Of a DNA stretch of 64,000 nt, positions 4,289 through 63,889 are shown one piece after another. Numbering within the stretch: position 1 is the stretch's first letter; every line of letters starts with the position of its first letter. This DNA comes from a virus (lineage: Duplodnaviria; Caudoviricetes). The position numbers and the translations under genes were made by a program. The notes beneath the pieces are model-generated. The model saw only the letters and a list, made by a program, of their open reading frames with translations, ran no database searches and was not told where the DNA came from. The stretch is taken from positions 38,863 to 102,862 of IMG/VR virus record IMGVR_UViG_3300033120_000579; one strand, 5' to 3'.

Positions 4289-7200
4289 TTATTTACCAAA
4301 TCTACTGTTTAATCCATTATATAATTCTTCAGAAGTAACTTCTAATTTACTTAATACTGGAATTAATTTTTCAGTTTTTCTAACAATTTTTAATTCACCT
4401 TTATTTTTACCTGTTTGATATTTATCATCAATTTCAGCCCAATTCCAAGGTAAAATATATTCAGCTACATCTAATGTTTGCTCAATAATTCTAAGTGATG
4501 GAATAGGACTTTTAGTAATTTTAGTAGCCTCTCTAGGATCTCTAAATTGACTAAGTTCAGATTCTAATCTTCTTGATAAGAATGCAACTGTCCATAACCA
4601 TTTGTTATCATCATCTCCATCTGCTGCACCTGCAGCTAACATTCCAATTAATGGAAGTATTGCTCCAGTTAAAGCTAATTCCATTACAGACTTTTTAATA
4701 CCAGCTTTTTTATCATCTGATAATTCATTCCAGTTAGAACTTAATATATCAAATTTAAGTTGTCTTAAAGCAGGATAAACCCCATGAATAAGAAATCTAG
4801 CTGTACTTACATAAGAACCTTCTTCAGTAGTTCTAAGTGCGTTATTAAAATGAATATCTTCTTCAGTTAAGTTGTCTTGATGTTTATAAAATGATTGAGC
4901 ACCTCTAAATCTAGCTACAGCTTGTGGTATTAAATAACGTCTAAACAACATTATCATTTTACCCCACCAATGTCTATAAGCTTCAGGTTGTAAATTAGAA
5001 TCATAATTACCCATTGTGTCAAAAATCTTTTTCTTTACAAATAATAATAGTTGTTCCTTACCGCCTTCATTAAGTTTAGAACTTAAACTTCTATTAGTAT
5101 AAACAACTTTATCATTCATTCTAACAATACCTTTATCATCTTTAGCTAACATGTCTAATACTGATACAGCATCTTTTTCACTTACAATTTCACCATTTTT
5201 ATTAATGTAATTATTATTAATATCCATAACTTTAATAGATTCTAGTGTAGCCATAACCATAATAGATTGAACATAGTGTTCACCTCCAGAATGTAAAATT
5301 TGTAAAGATTCAAAATTGACTGCTGTTTTAGCAATACTATTTTTAATAAATTCTTGTTGTTGAACTGTAAATCCACCAAAAGTATCAAACATTTGATTAA
5401 CCTGATTTACAAATGATTGTTTAACTGGTCTAGAATAATCTCCAAAAATATTAGGTAAATCTTTAGTATAAATTTCATTAGCTTTTTTAACAGAACCTTT
5501 AGTTAAATGATTACCTGCAACTCTTTCTAAAAATATTTGAGCTTGAGCATTTAAAACGTTTGCTGCTGCTGAAAATGTATTTAATGACAAACCTATAGAA
5601 GATACCCAACTATTAGTTGTACTAATAATTTTATTAACATCTAAAGGTCCCATTTTACCATAAGTAATATGAAATAAATCATAAATATTCTTTTCAATTA
5701 AATTACTAATCATTTTATATTCATTAGAATCAATACCTCTTTTAGTAGATTCTTTTTCTCTTTTAGCATATTTATTTAAAATAGAAATATTTCCTGCAGT
5801 TTTATTATAGTATTCTTTATTTTTAGCAATCATTTTAATTGCTTCAACTTGTAATGAAATAGCTTGTTTTTCTTTGTAATTTATACCATTAATACGATTT
5901 AAACGATTGATTGTAAATAAGTCTAAAGATTGTTGATCTGGGCTAATATCACCTCTGTAATGAACTCTTAACATATTTACAGAATTACCTTTACTATCTA
6001 AACGTTGTTCAACATATCCAATATCATCAGGTCTAATTTCAGTTAAATCTTTCCAAGCATCTTTTAAAATACCTTTAGTATTACCTTCAAGAATTCTTTC
6101 TTCATTAGATTTGGTTACAGAAGGTAAATTATAATAAGTAATTCCTAAAAATGGTTGAATTAATGATTGAATACTATTAGTTTGAGTATCTGTAATTTTA
6201 GTATCACTAATAAAATGATTAAGAACTTCTTTTTCAATTTTACTTAATTTAGATAAATCATTTTTCCATTTACTAGTTGGTATTTTAATTCCATCTACAT
6301 TAACAGTATTATCTTTTATAAATTTAGAAAATTTATTTCTAGCTTTAATATATTCAACATCTTTAGAATTATTTTCAGAAGCTTTATATTTAGCTATTTT
6401 ATCATTTTTTAATCTTAAATATTCTTCTCTAAATTTAATAGAGTATTCTCCTTTATAATAAGCTTTACCAGTACTATCAAATTCTAATAAATTGGTATAT
6501 AATTTAGTTGGGATACTAGAACCTCTTTCTTTAACTAATTTATCAAATAATTCAGCATCTTTAAAATCACCTTCTCTAGTTTGTTCAATAATTTTTTCTC
6601 TAGCTTGAGTAATTAAGTTAAATGTAATACTAACTAATCTAGAATTATTATTAATAGCATCCATAAATTTAACAGAAGCTGAAGAAATATCTGTTCCAAT
6701 ACCAATTAATAATAATTCAATTTCTTTATCTAAATCAAGTTGTATCTCATCTTTAAATGTAGTATTCATTTGTTGAGAAACCCATTCAGTTTGACTTATA
6801 TTAGTTAAACCTCTTTGTTTAAATTCAGCATTTAATCTTTTTCTCCATTTATCTTCAATTTGAGGTAAATAATTAATATTATTTAATTGATTTTTAAGAA
6901 TATCTATTAATTTACTATTAAGTCTTTTCTCTAATAAATCATGTTTACCTGTTGCATCTGATATACTTTTTTCTATTTCATCAACAAGTTCTTGACCAAC
7001 TTCATCAATTTTATCTTGATTTAAAGAAGTAATTAAAGTTGAAACATCATCAATTAAATCATAAGAAGACATATAACTTTTATACAATTCAATTATTTCT
7101 AAACCATTAGATTGAGTTAAATCTTCATTTTTAAGTCTAGTTTCTAATTGTTCAATTGTTGATAACATTGATTTAGTATAAACTGCTACACCTTTCCATT

Positions 7201-58495: not shown

Positions 58496-58527
58496 ATAGG
58501 GACTCTTTGGAGTCCTTATATTTTTTT
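58496..58527 (+). terminator. Intrinsic terminator
   Basis: TATAGGGACTC-TTTG-GAGTCCTTATA followed by TTTTTTT. Confidence 0.85.
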
Positions 58528-58678
58528 AACCTTAACTAAAAGAAACCTTTTGAGTTTGACTCAAATAAACTCTAATTAAAGATTTAGTAATTAATACTAC
58601 CTATTGTGATTGAGACATTTCACAACATTAAATACTTATTATTTCTAAATCTTTAAATACTACCTATATATAAGGTAT

Positions 58679-58785
58679 AAATAATTATGAGTTCAAATTA
58701 ATTACGATTTGATTTAATTTGATGAAACTTTGAAATCAATACTATAGTAATCGATCTATTGAGAAAGTAAATCTTATAATTATTT
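58679..58785 (+). ncRNA. Duplicated three-way-junction RNA motif, copy 1
   Basis: AAATAATTATGAG...CTTATAATTATTT closing helix, two internal hairpins, conserved ATGAA.CTTTGAAA and AAGTAAAT junctions; second copy at 62070. Confidence 0.5.
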
Positions 58786-58931
58786 GTACCTATATATTAA
58801 GGTATAAAATTTTAATAATAGTATCTCATAATATTATTGTTAATACACTAATAGAAGTTTAGTAATAAGTAGGAAGCCCAACAGTATTTGACACAATCCT
58901 AATTGCAATTGCTTATTCTAAACTTTTATTT

Positions 58932-59060
58932 AGTGTTATAATGTATTATTCTCAATTTCCAAGGTTGAGTAGTTGTAAGTATTTTAGGAGGGTACATTCT
59001 TATAGATTAAGTCTATAAATACTGAGGCCACTATTACAACTAAATACAGAGGATAACACT
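58932..59060 (+). ncRNA. Twister-ribozyme-like RNA, copy 1
   Basis: P1 AGTGTTA/TAACACT; UAA; P2 TGTA/TACA; P4 CTCAA/TTGAG; L4 (T)T-TCC-AA-GG; P5; GA-GGA. Confidence 0.6.
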
Positions 59061-59061
59061 G

Positions 59062-59178
59062 TTATAATAAACTCTCATCCAATTGCAGGTAGTAAGTGAT
59101 GCTTAAAAATTACTATAAGTAATATATAAGACTATAAGTAGCTGAGTCAAGGTGCAACCTTGTGAGAGTTTTTTATAA
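59062..59178 (+). ncRNA. Candidate structured RNA
   Basis: AAACTCTCA/TGAGAGTTT closing helix with a CAAGG-TGCAA-CCTTG hairpin stacked on its 3' side. Confidence 0.45.
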
Positions 59179-59353
59179 CTTATTGATTATGAAGGTGTTG
59201 AGGTTTAGGTTATATCATCCAAATGTAAAGTAAACTTGTCATTCACATTCAAAAATACACACTAAATCTATACTTATAGCTTTTATATCACATTTAAGTT
59301 AAACCAACTATATCAAAATTATAACTAATTATTAACTAAAATACAACAATATT

Positions 59354-59536
59354 ATGAAATATCAAGACATTTTAAACAAAAAAGTATTATTTGAAACTAA
59401 TAATGCACATGAATTTATGCAATATTTAATGAAAAAAGAAAATACTCAATCATTATGTTACACATTAATTAACTTATTACAAAATTCTAAAGGTTATACA
59501 TGTAATATGGCATCAGCTATAGGTGAACAAATATAA
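59354..59536 (+). CDS. Small early protein
   Basis: ATG in ATT-ATG context; 60 aa. Confidence 0.6.
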   Translation: MKYQDILNKKVLFETNNAHEFMQYLMKKENTQSLCYTLINLLQNSKGYTCNMASAIGEQI

Positions 59537-59665
59537 ACTAATTAAATTTAAACAATTTAATGATTTACCATTTTGGATAAATCCTTGGATTATATATCCA
59601 TTAACTTTATTAATTTATGCATCTCAAGAACAATGTCTTAAACTAATTGATAAATATCAAAAATT

Positions 59666-60681
59666 ATGATAATATTAATAATAACATATGGAATTGTTAT
59701 AATATTATGTTTATCAGTGGTATATATAGTAAGCACACTTATTAATGAAGATAATCATTAACTAAAACTAACAAATAAAAAATTATGATAACAATATTAA
59801 CAATTATTACATTTATTCTATCATTTATAGGATTATGTATTACATTTAAAGGTCAATTTGATAATAAATTAAAACAAACTCTGTTAGGTTTGTTGATAAT
59901 ATTATTATCACCAACACCAATTATAATTAAATACTACTATGATAGTAAACAAATTATGAAAATTGAATATGAAATTGAGTTAATTAATCAAGATTCAATT
60001 AAAGTTTACAATGGTTCTATATTAGATACAATTCCATTTAATAAATTAGAAAAATATATCGAATCTGACAATCTTTAAATTATGGAAATAACATTAAATT
60101 TAACAGCAACATTAATTATGATATTTGTAATTCATACTATATTTACTCATTTATTAAATTGGATGATTAGAGAAGTAGATGAACATGAATTAACAGGTTT
60201 AACAATATTTTTAAATATTATAGAACTATCCTTATGTATTATATTTATAATGATATTAACAAAATGATATTATGAAATATATTATTTCATTTATTATTTG
60301 TAATTGGTAAAAACACATAAATTATGACAATAACATTTACATTTGCTATTATAGTAGCATTAGTTATAATATTATTTCTAAATCAATTAGAGAAATAATG
60401 TCAAATGAACAATACATAATGATATTCAATAACATTGTTATTGGTATTACAATTATAGCTATTATTTATATAACTATTAATACAATAATTAATAAAAATA
60501 AATAATTATGTTTATAAAATATATATCACATTCAAGAATTAAAAAAGTTGAAATATCTACTAGAAATTATAATCCTATTATTAAAATTACAGTTAGTAAT
60601 ATTAGAAATGAGGATGAAATTTATGAAACTAAAGAGTATATTTCAGATGAAAAAGGTATTTACGAAGAATTTGAATACTAA
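59666..60681 (+). CDS. Cluster of tiny early ORFs, mostly membrane peptides (59666..59761, 59785..60078, 60082..60267, 60324..60398, 60398..60505, 60508..60681)
   Basis: Most start in an ATT-ATG context and one by TAATG coupling; five have 1-2 hydrophobic helices; four are below the ORF-track cutoff. Confidence 0.55.
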
Positions 60682-60715
60682 ATAACATAAAATAATAATC
60701 TTAAAAACAAATGTT

Positions 60716-61396
60716 ATGGAACAGTTTAAAAGAGCAAAAGTAGTTATGCTTCCTACTAATATAAGAAGTGTTATAGCAATAAGTGATACATTAGGTTTAT
60801 TACCATATAATATAACTCAATATGTTAAGATAAAAGAACATATAGTACCTCAACATCTTTATATTATATCCGATGATGAAATTAAAGAAAGAGATAAAGT
60901 GATATTTAATAATAATATCTACACTGTATTAAAAACAGGAATACATTATTACGGAGATTTTGATTTACAAGTTTCTAATAATATGTTTATACCTAGTAAT
61001 AAAAGTAAAAAAATAATAGCTACTACTGATAAATCTTTATCTATTAAATTACATATAGGAGAAGTAGTAGATAATTCTTATCCTCAAGCATTTCATAATA
61101 TTTTACCTCAACCTTCTCCTCAATTTATACAAAAATATATTGAATCTTATAATAAAGGTGAAATTATTACTGATATATTAGTTGAGTTATTATCTGAAGA
61201 AAGTTATGGTTGTGATTTAGCTTATTATGGTTTAACTGAGCCTGAACTTAAAATCAATCCTAAAGATAACACTATTACAATTAAGAAAATTAAAGATACT
61301 TATAGTAGAGAAGAAATTTTTGCTGTAATTGAAACATATAACAATGCAAAAGGAGATGCTCCTAATATTGTTGATTGGTTAAAAGAAAATTTATAA
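60716..61396 (+). CDS. Hypothetical early protein (226 aa)
   Basis: VVMLPT...QHLYIISDDEIKE.D...KKIIATTD..L...LPQPS.QFI.KYIE.YNKG, a recurrent Bacteroidota-phage family; function unknown. Confidence 0.75.
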   Translation: MEQFKRAKVVMLPTNIRSVIAISDTLGLLPYNITQYVKIKEHIVPQHLYIISDDEIKERDKVIFNNNIYTVLKTGIHYYGDFDLQVSNNMFIPSNKSKKIIATTDKSLSIKLHIGEVVDNSYPQAFHNILPQPSPQFIQKYIESYNKGEIITDILVELLSEESYGCDLAYYGLTEPELKINPKDNTITIKKIKDTYSREEIFAVIETYNNAKGDAPNIVDWLKENL

Positions 61397-61686
61397 ACAT
61401 ATTAGCAGGTTAAATATATTTATAGACTGTTCACTTATTATATAGTTATAACTAATACATAACGTATGGAAAGAATTATGTAGTATAATAACATCAGCAA
61501 TATATTTAATCACGTTCAAAACTAATATGTTTTATTATGGAGCAGGAAGTTTATCTGGTCAGCCTGAAAAGGTAGGGTTTAAATCTGGTCAGCTCCAAGT
61601 ATTAACTATTGTAAGAGTGACATCCTTGCTCTAAGAGATGGATGTGTAATACGATGAATTAACATTAGCCGCTTTTACAATAGTTA
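61395..61686 (+). ncRNA. Three adjacent structured elements (61395-61532, 61538-61597, 61603-61686)
   Basis: Closing helices AAACATATTAG/CTAATATGTTT, TGGAGC/GCTCCA and TAACTATTGTAAGAGTG/CGCTTTTACAATAGTTA; no ORF. Confidence 0.45.
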
Positions 61687-61712
61687 TTTTTAATAATTAA
61701 ATCAATAAAGAT

Positions 61713-61859
61713 ATGAATAAACTAAAATTAATGTTTTGGATAATACTGACATTTTTATGGTCTTATTTTGAACTAGTATATATACTATATAAAAAAGAAC
61801 CATCAAGAATAGGTATATATCTATTTGATAAATTATGGTCAATTTTTGAAGAGGAATAA
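61713..61859 (+). CDS. Small membrane peptide (48 aa, not in ORF track)
   Basis: MNKLKLMFWIILTFLWSYFELVYILY... Confidence 0.55.
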   Translation: MNKLKLMFWIILTFLWSYFELVYILYKKEPSRIGIYLFDKLWSIFEEE

Positions 61860-61862
61860 ATT

Positions 61863-62060
61863 AAATCACTTACTTGAAGATAAACAATAATATTGAGGTA
61901 ATGAGTCAAGTTCCTAGCTTATATAGTTACACAAGAGATGAAACGGCTCTTATATTATAAACTGTATTAGCAGTTGTGTTTATTGTAGAAACATTGTAAT
62001 GACCTATATAGGGATGGCGACCTTAAACAAATGTTCCACTAGAATTTGGATAAGTGATTT
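61863..62060 (+). ncRNA. Candidate multi-branch structured RNA
   Basis: AAATCACTTA/TAAGTGATTT closing helix with nested helices; no ORF. Confidence 0.4.
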
Positions 62061-62069
62061 TTAAAATAT

Positions 62070-62189
62070 AAATAATTATGAGTTTGAATTACATGACGGT
62101 AATTTAATGAATCTTTGAAAATATAATGATAATATACTATACTAGTTGACTAGTTAACTCATTTATAGAAGTAAATCTTATAATTATTT
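62070..62189 (+). ncRNA. Duplicated three-way-junction RNA motif, copy 2
   Basis: Same closing helix and junction sequences as 58679-58785, with different but paired internal stems. Confidence 0.5.
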
Positions 62190-62390
62190 TTTTAAACTAA
62201 AAGCTGTCAGTGAGTAAAACTGTCTCGTTATACTTAAAGTAGAAATAGGTATAATTAAATAATAGTTTCTACAGGATAAATACACTATTTTATCTAACAT
62301 CTTATATTTGAGTTGCAAATCATTTATAAGCTCTGGAAAATACTTACTAATGAGACCATTAGGTCAAACCTCATCAATGTGTATTATTGA

Positions 62391-62507
62391 TGTTGTATTA
62401 ATGTATCATTCTAACTTCCCAAGGGTTAGCTGTTATAATTGGAATAAATCTATTATTGAACCGAGCCTGAAATCAATAAATTACAACAGAATACAGAGGG
62501 TAACACT
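62391..62507 (+). ncRNA. Twister-ribozyme-like RNA, copy 2
   Basis: UAA 62399-62401; P2 TGTA/TACA; P4 CTAAC/GTTAG; L4 (T)T-CCC-AA-GG; P5; GA-GGG-TAACACT; P1 weaker. Confidence 0.55.
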
Positions 62508-62526
62508 AATTTAAAATAGAGAAATT

Positions 62527-62715
62527 ATGATTAAGAAATTGCTTTTAGAATATCCATCTACTTTCCTTTTAGGAACTGTATTTGGAACTGTATTAGGCTT
62601 CTTTATAACATTTTTGTTAATGAAAACAGATATAAGAACTGCAGAAGAATCTTATGAAATAGGTTACAAAAACGCTCAACAAGAATGTAGAGATTTCATT
62701 AAAAATACTAAGTGA
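62527..62715 (+). CDS. Small single-TM protein
   Basis: FLLGTVFGTVLGFFITFLL TM segment; ATT-ATG start. Confidence 0.65.
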   Translation: MIKKLLLEYPSTFLLGTVFGTVLGFFITFLLMKTDIRTAEESYEIGYKNAQQECRDFIKNTK

Positions 62716-62882
62716 TGAATCATCCTCCTGTTCCTTGTACACCTTCTATGCCTTGTTGGTGTGAAAAACATCCTAATAATCCTAATTGTCAGAATGTAGA
62801 AACTGTTCCTATAGATAATTCATTTTTTATAATTATTATAGTTTTATTAACAATTTATAAAACATTTAAGAAATTAAAATAG
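62715..62882 (+). CDS. Pro/Cys-rich micro-protein with a PID-CTERM-like tail (55 aa, not in ORF track)
   Basis: MNHPPVPCTPSMPCWCEKHPNNPNCQNVETVPIDNSFFIIIIVLLTIYKTFKKLK; TGATG-coupled to the upstream gene. Confidence 0.65.
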   Translation: MNHPPVPCTPSMPCWCEKHPNNPNCQNVETVPIDNSFFIIIIVLLTIYKTFKKLK

Positions 62883-62951
62883 ATTAAATTATTATTTAAA
62901 CAACCTTAATAATTATATTATTAAAATTAATATCTATAGCATAGATATAAG

Positions 62952-63889
62952 ATGGTGATCTTTAATAATAGTTTAATCTTAATATTTAAAATTATGAGCA
63001 CAAGAGAATTTTTACAATTTCTAGGTCACACATCTGGAGATATTAAACAAAGATACAATAATAAACAAATTAGAATATCAAATAAACCAGTTAAAAATTT
63101 AAATAGAAATCTTAATTTTGAATATTATATGACTTTAGAAGAATGGTTAAATTCTCATGATATAGAGTTTATAATAAAGTTAAGAGATTTAAGTATATTA
63201 TTTAATAATATTTATGAAATGTTTTATTTAAAAACTAATATAAATAGTTCAATATTAAAATATTTAAAGTCATTTATATTATTACAAATTGATAAAAAGA
63301 CATTTTATATATTAATTAAAAATTAACTACAAATTATGAAAAATATTAACAAATTACAACAACAAGGTTATACTGGTATTAAAGTTACATCAATGTTAAA
63401 TGCTTGTTTATCAAATGAAATTAAAGTTCATTTAAGATTAGTTCAGTTAGATAATTTATCTAAAATTAATAACAAATATTTCAAAACTAAAATTATTTCC
63501 AAACCTGAAATGACTCTTCTATGGAATATTTATTGGAATTTTGTATTAAATGATTTTAGATTTGATGATAAATCTAAAGAATACACTATTATTAAATCAA
63601 TAGTAAAAGCTGAACCACAACATATTGGCTTAAAAATGTTAAATCAATTATTATGACAATCTTAGAACATTCAAAAATTAAGAAATTTAGTTTAAATACT
63701 TATTTTAAAGTTAAAACTAAAAATCTAAAATTTTATGGTAAAACTAGACCTAAATATAAAGAAGGTTTTATTTTTGTAGGATTATTTGGTGAATATTTCT
63801 TTAATGAAACAGGACCAACTCAAAAAAATAATATATTTGAAATAAATCATTCTATTTCAAATATTGAAGTAATTGAAAGAATAAATTAG
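62952..63889 (+). CDS. Three hypothetical early proteins (62952/62994..63326, 63336..63656, 63653..63889)
   Basis: Co-oriented, closely spaced ORFs. Confidence 0.6.

Follow-up and report, generated by a model that had tools for sequence, protein, structure and literature searches.

Twister-type RNA elements, probably self-cleaving, form a large family in phage genomes

The window, that is, the whole 64,000-nucleotide stretch of phage DNA that was analyzed, contains two RNA elements that are likely to be self-cleaving ribozymes of the twister class, similar to type P1 and belonging to a distinct, uncatalogued phage subtype; each would cut a multi-gene transcript before genes. They represent a structural variant of this class that very probably self-cleaves at U58939^A58940 and U62399^A62400, the cut position being predicted by analogy with twister (PMC5408937). 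The twister-type fold that had been proposed from the two copies is borne out by covarying stems, by the covarying pseudoknot T1 and by the conservation of every twister active-site base at a level of 98–100%.

Architecture of the two copies

Both copies read on the + strand as the original prediction had described them, at 58932–59060 and 62391–62507, and its positions for the U^A steps (58939/58940 and 62399/62400) and for the guanines of the GA motif (59049 and 62496) were in agreement with ours. The differences between the copies are compensatory, as had been claimed, in P4 (CTCAA/TTGAG versus CTAAC/GTTAG), in T1 (TCC/GGA versus CCC/GGG) and at the base of P5 (TAG..CTA versus CTG..CAG).

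Copy 1, a twister-type element of 129 nt (58932–59060, + strand), scored 152.6 bits with R1, a covariance model built from the window copies. Its minimum-free-energy fold gives P1, P2, P4 and P5 (z = -2.86). The P1 5' strand AGUGUUA (58932–58938) has its partner in the 3' strand UAACACU (59054–59060), as read from the sequence, and these 7 pairs make up the longest P1 in the family; counting the adjacent pair, the contiguous run is 8, as compared to a family mean of 1.9. The conserved U^AA follows at 58939–58941, with the predicted scissile bond between U58939 and A58940, and with A58940 as the candidate general acid. The P2 5' strand UGUAU (58942–58946) forms 5 bp with AUACA (59044–59048), as supported by covariation. 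It is followed at 58947–58950 by a U at the 'C14' position, the candidate single T2 partner of G58963, and by an AUU junction. P4 (58951–58969, with the strands 58951–55 and 58965–69) surrounds L4 (58956–64) and is supported by covariation and by invariant L4 bases. L4 consists of an extra U (58956), a second U (58957), the T1 5' strand UCC (58958–60), AA (58961–62) and two guanines (58963 and 58964). The P5 stem-loop (58970–59042) has a base helix of 58970–78 with 59034–42, a variable interior and 9 covarying pairs. The segment 59043–59053 contains an A (59043), the P2 3' strand (59044–48), the candidate general base G59049, A59050 and the T1 strand GGA (59051–53), and leads into the 3' strand of P1.

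Copy 2 (62391–62507, + strand, with the core at 62399–62500) scored 129.3 bits with R1. The sequence UAACACU (62501–07) is kept as in copy 1, yet it has no contiguous P1 partner by the cut site (a run of 0), a point that the original prediction had left implicit. The conserved U^AA is located at 62399–62401, with the predicted scissile bond between U62399 and A62400. The segment 62402–62410 comprises the P2 5' strand UGUAU (62402–06, partner 62491–95), a C (62407) and AUU (62408–10). P4 (62411–62429, with the strands 62411–15 and 62425–29) surrounds L4, which reads UU-CCC-AA-GG (62416–24) and contains the T1 5' strand at 62418–20. The P5 stem-loop (62430–62489) has a base helix of 62430–38 with 62481–89, including one A.C mismatch. 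The 3' part of the core (62490–62500) contains an A (62490), the P2 3' strand (62491–95), the candidate general base G62496, A62497 and the T1 strand GGG (62498–500).

The elements are intergenic and have the same orientation as the small phage genes. Of 113 members of the family, 104 fall outside any ORF of at least 50 aa, and 32 are followed by an ATG ORF within 60 nt; for copy 2, the distance from its end to the ORF at 62527 is 19 nt. A search of the + strand upstream of both copies for a host-type promoter (TAnnTTTG) gave nothing except a weak candidate at 62303. The window copies are also flanked by strongly folded non-coding modules.

Family size and distribution

The model R1 identified 5 homologues in 35 related crAss-like records, with E-values from 8e-12 to 6e-5. 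A single exact pattern for the 5' half matched at least 119 IMG/VR contigs, and R1 aligned 109 of the matches listed. The elements thus belong to a very large phage RNA family, counting at least 119 contigs by one pattern. Compact members of 69–70 nt occur in the loci L215, at about 5115–5195 on the - strand, and L125, at 2887–2955. With a twister-style descriptor, copies 1 and 2 were the only matches on both strands of the 102,862-bp genome, as compared to a mean of 0.27 in shuffled sequences (n = 100). Stronger evidence against chance comes from the covarying homologues of the window copies, which number more than 100.

A scan of prokaryote genomes with the pattern yielded 28 matches, only about 9 of which were genuine, as judged from a complementary P4 and a matching 3' half. 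These were all located on MAG contigs, mostly binned to Bacteroidota. The matches in cultured isolates (Sphingobacterium, Penaeicola and Undibacterium) were rejected as chance matches, and no cultured carrier of the element was present among the 28. Among sequencing runs, the window appeared, as contigs, in just the probable source sample, and no RNA run was listed for it.

Several other searches gave no homologues. An earlier 5'-half pattern, fitted too tightly to the window copies, had zero matches, as did a blastn search with 58500–63000 in a set of 50,697 phage records. In IMG/VR, 13 loci matched the exact 3'-half pattern AATACAGAGGRTAACAC, and all of them were discarded as chance matches inside unrelated coding sequence. 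Homologues of the 226-aa neighbour protein had no element in the surrounding loci; these relatives are distant (identity of at most 47%).

Covariation and base conservation

Covariation was analyzed in a set of 102 distinct sequences, and base conservation was counted over 97 sequences. Sequence comparison shows the fold with its pseudoknot T1, which bases are conserved and how the family is distributed. In the covariation set, 94.1% of the cells were paired, as compared to 76.0% in shuffles and 33–49% with the partners slid, and 585 cells had changed on both sides, as compared to 169 in shuffles. P2 was 98.4% paired, with the third pair being C-G in 65 sequences and U-A in 31. P4 was 99.4% paired, with 3–5 pair types per position and a variable closing pair (C-G 61, A-U 23, U-A 15). 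P5 is present in every member, with its 9 covarying pairs and a length of 11–237 nt, often more than 100 nt, and P3 is absent from the family. P1 is weak in most members, the mean run being 1.9 as compared to 1.02 +/- 0.10 in shuffled pairings, with 7 pairs in copy 1 and none contiguous in copy 2.

The pseudoknot T1 covaries at all three pairs, with CCC/GGG, UCC/GGA, CAC/GUG, CCA/UGG and CCU/AGG all represented. The 3' half was in every case found without use of T1, and its T1 strand matched in 12 of 12 members for CAC/GUG, in 9 of 9 for CCA/UGG and in 2 of 2 for CCU/AGG; a single CUC variant was compensated at the changed position. Chance pattern matches without a complementary P4 never had a matching 3' half. 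The original prediction had pointed to homologues as the place to look for covariation, and compensatory changes in these back P2, P4, P5 and T1. Since the helices contain G.U pairs, for which the opposite strand would carry A.C mismatches, the RNA of the + strand is the selected molecule.

Conservation was complete (97 of 97 sequences) for A+1, A+2, both loop U, both loop A and both G of AAGG, and also for the A before P2' and the A of GA, with the G of GA conserved in 95 of 97. The 'C14' position is a C in 95 of 97 relatives and a U in copy 1. N-1 is a U in 87 of 97 sequences, which together with the invariant A+1 matches the cut-site pattern of twister, where the U at N-1 is less conserved and the A 3' of the cut is highly conserved (PMC5408937).

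The T2 contact

Over the 97 sequences, L2 reads Y-C and L4 reads G-G, and there is no conserved two-pair T2 of the GC/GC type. The first Y (58946/62406) and the base that immediately precedes P2' change together (C-G in 76 and U-A in 21 of the 102 sequences), and this Y thus pairs as a fifth P2 pair rather than in T2. This fifth pair sits at the T2 end of P2, far from the active site. The variant T2 originally put forward, UY/GG, is not supported; its first pair was rejected, since the Y pairs with the base beside P2'.

The extra U of L4 probably has the second G of AAGG as its partner, which would lengthen P4. At most one C-G pair of T2 would then be left, with C14 and the first G of AAGG as the candidate partners. 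Since the bases involved are invariant, both the one-pair T2 and the U.G pair are beyond the reach of covariation. A search for natural variants of AAGG turned up two members in which the first G is replaced and one in which the second is. Both of the former are unchanged at C14, and one of them lies on a truncated contig. The latter, a natural G-to-A variant, keeps the pair with the extra U and has C13-G40 intact. These variants are too few for T2 to be settled by covariation.

Comparison with known ribozymes

Twister is among the best-studied small ribozymes, and to our knowledge its biological role is still an open question. The defining features used here were taken from PMC5408937, PMC6154101 and PMC11662667. 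The closest likeness is to type-P1 twister (RF03160; Roth et al. 2014), exemplified by Osa-1-4 of Oryza sativa, PDB 4OJI (PMC5408937, PMC6154101). Both have the order P1, N^AA, P2, L2, P4, L4, P2', GA, T1 strand and P1', the loop core U-NNN-AA-G, a three-pair T1 from L4 to the strand after GA, the invariant A 3' of the cut, the less conserved U at N-1, and a dispensable or variable P1; twisters are reported to cleave without P1 (PMC6154101, PMC11662667).

The differences concern T2, P2, L4 and the peripheral helices. The canonical twister has GC in L2, UNNNAAGC in L4 and a four-pair P2, whereas the family has YC, GG and a five-pair P2. The canonical L4, U-NNN-A-A-G-C, is closed by a near-invariant G-C; that of the family has an extra U, a G in place of the C and a variable closing pair. 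T2 has been named the most critical tertiary contact of twister (PMC5408937), and in every natural twister tested by CHiTA it comprised 2 nt (PK1), with non-wobble defects lowering cleavage (PMC11662667). An altered length of P2 has been suggested to disturb the twister active site (PMC5408937). Most twisters have P3 (78%), while P5 is rare (1%; PMC6154101), in contrast to the family, which lacks P3 and has an obligatory P5. In Twister-P5 (RF02684) and in P5-bearing twisters, the helix is located at the same P4'-P2' junction as in the family, but RF02684 is a circular permutation opened in P5, whereas the RNA of the family enters and leaves at P1.

In line with these differences, Rfam searches did not identify the elements. 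No ribozyme family was detected at the gathering threshold in the window, in 22 related loci or in two compact members, the only matches being tRNAs, a tmRNA and a group I intron at other places in these loci. With Rfam 15, no family of any kind matched the elements in the window region, and the models RF03160 and RF02684 gave nothing at E <= 10 on the whole genome, as did the twister models on the compact members. The blindness of the twister models to both elements is in keeping with the word 'variant' in the original prediction: with one of its two long-range contacts rewired, the family is missed by the standard RNA catalogue.

Twister-sister (RF02681) is likewise a small nucleolytic ribozyme built on multi-helix junctions. 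It occurs in comparable microbial and phage settings, and its sequence is vaguely similar to that of twister. Its cut lies on the opposite strand of the internal loop, and its description included no covariation of a pseudoknot (Weinberg et al. 2015; PMC5408937). Unlike twister-sister, the family has a T1 that covaries, and N^AA and GA are arranged as in twister. Engineered 5'-UTR ribozyme insulators cut off upstream RNA and remain on the message. The P1-less mini-twister (cited in PMC6154101), which is active without a full P1, is also like the family in this respect. However, insulators and mini-twister are laboratory constructs, whereas the family is a natural conserved phage element, for which an insulator role is suggested by its position.

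Alternative explanations

A twister-derived fold without catalysis, serving as a structural or protein-binding element of the 5' leader (a stabiliser, a translational insulator or a factor-binding site), seems unlikely. It would accord with the loss of the canonical T2 and the lengthening of P2, both features being held important for activity (PMC5408937, PMC11662667), as well as with the failure of the Rfam twister models and with the large and variable P5. However, the bases of the chemistry, among them the G of GA and the A that follows the cut, are near-absolutely conserved, which argues against a purely architectural fold that would have no use for them, and T1 has been kept by compensatory change at all three of its pairs.

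A conditional ribozyme or switch, with cutting controlled by a ligand, a protein or an alternative pairing, is a second alternative that we consider quite improbable. Position 13, for example, could pair with the base before P2' in an inactive state and with the second G of AAGG in an active state with a two-pair T2, P5 being the sensor. Position 13 (C or U) is indeed able to pair with either partner in every sequence, and P5 is both obligatory and often long. Yet the P5 interiors are conserved neither between the window copies nor among relatives, which speaks against a common ligand pocket. A static model is also favoured by the G-to-A variant of the second G, in which C13-G40 is kept and the pair is made with the extra U.

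Finally, a chance resemblance or a DNA-level repeat (a promoter, a recombination site or the end of a mobile element) without RNA function is extremely improbable: AU-rich helices arise easily in a genome with a GC content of about 22%, the loose descriptor gives 0.27 chance matches per genome and copy 2 alone folds no better than shuffles (z = +0.97), but more than 100 homologues keep four helices and the pseudoknot through compensatory and G.U changes that fit only the RNA of the + strand, and these covariation data refute it.

Proposed mechanism

We infer the following course of events for a twister-class ribozyme, from its catalysis and precise cut position to its role in the phage. During transcription of the + strand, the 5' half would form first, with N^AA, the P2 5' strand, the C, AUU and P4 with the loop UU-NNN-AA-GG. 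The P5 arm would fold next, after which the 3' strand would close the five-pair P2. The loop CCC (UCC in copy 1) would then pair with the GGG or GGA after the invariant GA to make the pseudoknot T1. T2 would be rewired, with its first pair replaced by the local fifth P2 pair and with P4 lengthened by the inserted U and the second G of AAGG. If the chemistry follows that of solved twisters, the general base would be the G of GA (59049, 62496), and the general acid the A that follows the cut (58940, 62400). The RNA would be cut between U58939 and A58940 and between U62399 and A62400, leaving the upstream RNA with a 2',3'-cyclic phosphate and the downstream RNA with a 5'-OH and the folded ribozyme at its 5' end. 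The likely role of such a cut in a multi-gene transcript ahead of the genes would be to detach upstream structured leaders and to provide the message with a defined, structured 5'-OH end.

Implications for the phage family

More tentatively, the family may be a distinct branch of twister in which T2 has been reduced to a single pair, with local pairs in its place and with the obligatory P5 three-way junction as a stabilising element. Bacteroidota phages might then use the ribozyme systematically as a 5'-UTR 'insulator' that cuts structured leaders from the first gene, and cleavage may be conditional in some members with a very large P5 arm, which can reach 237 nt. An active site and T1 that are kept while T2 is rewired, P2 is longer and P5 is constant would show how far the twister fold can be rebuilt, and the family would widen what searches for twister should target. 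The members of 69–70 nt are ready test constructs, and the consistent placement of the elements offers a concrete setting in which to ask what such ribozymes do in phage gene expression.

Genomic position of the two elements

The window, bases 38863-102862 of an IMG/VR virus record with a length of 102,862 bp, codes for a crAss-type major head protein, a portal protein, a large terminase and a GroEL-like protein, with three giant proteins encoded on the minus strand. The coding strand changes at about 58.0-59.3 kb, and from 59354 to the window end small plus-strand ORFs of unknown function form one block. The two twister-type RNAs, copy 1 (58932-59060) and copy 2 (62391-62507), are located on the plus strand within parts of this block that contain no ORF, where the surrounding GC content is approximately 20-30%. 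The distance to the next downstream ORF is about 290 nt for copy 1 (the first ORF of the block) and 19 nt for copy 2 (the ORF at 62527).

A repeated Bacteroidota-type -7 box, TAnnTTTG, stands in front of the minus-strand genes and was detected as repeat family D1 (minus strand, 14914-58005, six copies of about 67 nt each). The D1 repeats resemble Bacteroidota-type promoters. They were not found in the plus-strand small-gene block, nor was any host-type promoter found on the plus strand of the small-gene region, apart from a weak candidate at 62303. The original prediction had called this block an early region, which is plausible given the small ORFs of unknown function and the lack of a detectable host-type promoter.

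Identification of homologues

Both copies read as originally described, and the differences between them are indeed compensatory in P4, in the pseudoknot T1 and at the base of P5. A twister-style descriptor (in order: AA, a 4-bp P2, a spacer, P4, one or two U followed by NNN-AAG-S, P4', at most 160 nt, P2', GA and the complement of NNN) matched only copies 1 and 2 in the whole genome, with a mean of 0.27 matches in shuffles. Copy 1 alone folds into the proposed secondary structure (z = -2.86). Folding of copy 2 alone did not reproduce this structure, and thermodynamics by itself is therefore insufficient for the case.

The original prediction had suggested a covariance model of the two copies as a check, and this model recovered homologues in related phages. 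The search of 35 records with an MCP at 78-94% identity gave five clear homologues (E-values from 8e-12 to 6e-5) and two marginal matches, and these add the compensatory states UGCA/UGCA in P2 and UCACA/UGUGA in P4. A degenerate pattern of the 5' half was found in at least 119 IMG/VR contigs. Alignment to the covariance model yielded, among the matches listed, 109 matches from 98 sources, including extra copies missed by the 5'-half pattern. Two or three members per locus were observed in 13 of the 99 member-bearing loci among the matches listed. One contig binned to Sediminibacterium carries a tandem pair (L247:6027-6260, plus strand) spaced 113 nt from start to start, in which the 3' flank of the first member continues straight into the second.

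A search of 185,579 species-representative prokaryote genomes with the 5'-half pattern matched 28 contigs, of which only about nine are genuine carriers. Matches in cultured isolates were rejected as chance matches, and the genuine carriers are all MAG contigs, most of which had been assigned by binning to Sediminibacterium, Chitinophagaceae or Bacteroidia. Thus, the family is essentially phage-borne and linked to Bacteroidota.

Covariation and conserved bases

Among 102 distinct sequences, 94.1% of the cells in the alignment were standard pairs, as compared to 76.0% in shuffles (0 of 500 reaching the observed value) and 33-49% for slid partners. P4 was 99.4% paired with three to five pair types at every position, and the nine pairs at the base of P5 covary throughout. 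The third pair of P2 covaries (C-G in 65 sequences, U-A in 31), and so does a fifth pair (C-G in 76, U-A in 21, with only 4 exceptions). The frequent G.U pairs show that it is the plus-strand RNA that is under selection. P1 is weak and probably real: contiguous pairing beside the cut averaged 1.9 pairs, as compared to 1.02 +/- 0.10 in shuffled pairings. The longest P1 was seen in copy 1, and copy 2 has none.

All three pairs of T1, the signature pseudoknot of twister, are supported by covariation. With the 3' half placed from P2' and GA alone, the state CAC/GUG was found in 12 of 12 members from a dedicated scan, where a single CUC variant compensates at the altered position, CCA/UGG in 9 of 9 and CCU/AGG in 2 of 2; the UCC/GGA state includes copy 1. 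As an internal control, pattern matches without a complementary P4 never showed the 3' half. Covariation of P2, P4 and T1 in homologues, which the original prediction had named as one of its tests, was thus found, and the twister-type fold was upheld. The assignment of the pseudoknot T2 as UY/GG was not, as its first base covaries as the fifth pair of P2.

Conserved in 97 of 97 sequences of the model-derived alignment are both A directly 3' of the predicted cut, the two U and two A of the loop, the two G of AAGG, the lone A that separates P5 from P2' and the A of GA. The G of GA is conserved in 95 of 97, and the base 5' of the predicted cut is U in 87 of 97. In twister, the A of the scissile step is highly conserved and the U less so, the G of GA has been proposed as general base, and the L4 core is U-NNN-AA-G (PMC5408937). 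The phage family has the same scissile-step pattern, GA and L4 core. Together, the twister-type fold, T1 and a complete complement of catalytic bases make self-cleavage at U58939^A58940 and U62399^A62400 the best explanation, held with fairly high confidence, and both elements are predicted to be catalytic.

Differences from canonical twister

Canonical twister has a P2 of four pairs and an invariant G-C as the P4-closing pair (PMC5408937, PMC6154101, PMC11662667). T2 joins a conserved GC in L2 with GC in L4 by two pairs described as "most critical" (PMC5408937), and consists of two nucleotides in all natural twisters assayed by CHiTA (PMC11662667). Of the canonical members, 78% carry a P3 and 1% a P5 (PMC6154101). 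In contrast, the phage family has Y-C in L2, where the Y is joined to the base preceding P2' as the fifth pair of P2, and G-G in L4, which contains one more U. Its P4-closing pair is variable, P3 is absent, and P5 is always there (11-237 nt).

In the most economical mapping, the canonical C31 would be missing, the extra U would form a U.G pair with the second G in place of the invariant G-C, and T2 would be reduced to one pair, in which the first G is bound to C14, the base after the Y (C13). Instead of four P2 pairs and two T2 pairs, the coaxial stack would then contain five P2 pairs and one T2 pair. A single natural variant with the second G changed to A, which retains C13-G40 (G40 being the base just 5' of P2') and in which the A is able to pair with the extra U, fits the U.G mapping as one case. 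Both bases of the putative remaining T2 pair are invariant.

Neither the window nor 22 related loci gave a match to any Rfam 15 family at gathering score. At E<=10, the Rfam twister models gave none on the window region or on slices of 121-131 nt centred on compact members (69-70 nt), and RF03160 and RF02684 none on the whole genome. This outcome agrees with the wording "variant" in the original prediction, and no published description of this subtype was found. Since the element, although twister-like in its predicted action, lacks three defining canonical sequence features and is missed by all Rfam models, we file the family as a twister variant rather than as an ordinary member.

Structured RNAs around the elements

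The setting of the element is consistent across the family. Among the matches listed, 104 of 113 members avoid ORFs of at least 50 aa, the members are co-oriented with the downstream ORFs, and 32 members are at most 60 nt upstream of an ATG. In relatives, the element is located in the same small-gene block as in the window, in two of them 0.5-0.7 kb upstream of a homologue of the 226-aa protein of the window.

Several other features were observed at element-bearing loci. An insert at L261:1119-1500 and L262:1974-2350 (plus strand) splits a family member directly after ...UUCCCAAG. Its ORF opens with a GIY-YIG-like motif (..IYKITN..NGKVYIGQT..), and the insert therefore looks like a homing-endonuclease gene within the ribozyme loop. 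At L108:5482-5718 (minus strand), 6 nt separate the end of a member from a tRNA gene that contains a long insertion and scores 38 bits with the Rfam tRNA model. Among other loci with the element there are tRNAs, a phage tmRNA at L164:9393-9837 and a group I intron at L140:12716-12973. A subfamily (L123, L130, L173, L188, L202, L203 and L211) shares a conserved AUUUGUUGCAYAUG...GGCAACA... immediately 3' of the ribozyme, which may be a further downstream RNA element.

In the window, a module of approximately 110-120 nt is duplicated on the plus strand (58676-58785 and 62067-62189), 150-210 nt upstream of each copy, and each twister copy thus belongs to a larger duplicated unit. The two modules share three collinear conserved blocks, which include an identical 21-mer, AAGTAAATCTTATAATTATTT, absent elsewhere in the window. 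In both, the conserved ends pair in a closing helix of 13-16 bp around inner hairpins that vary. Two strong plus-strand hairpins (58790-58931, z = -3.46) follow, the second of which stops directly before P1 of copy 1. The 3' end of copy 1 adjoins a 120-nt ORF-free domain (59061-59180, plus strand; -30.4 kcal/mol, z = -3.76, with 0 of 200 shuffles folding as well), with the closing helices GUUAUAA/UUAUAAC and ACUCUCA/UGAGAGU and a U-run at its end.

As folded ORF-free modules surround each copy, a cut would part upstream structured RNAs from downstream RNA. The upstream product of the copy 1 cut would terminate in a long hairpin, and the first RNA to follow the predicted cut would be the domain at 59061-59180. 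The downstream RNA would start with a 5'-OH and a compact ribozyme, and the cut may serve to release small RNAs, to insulate translation starts or to control stability.
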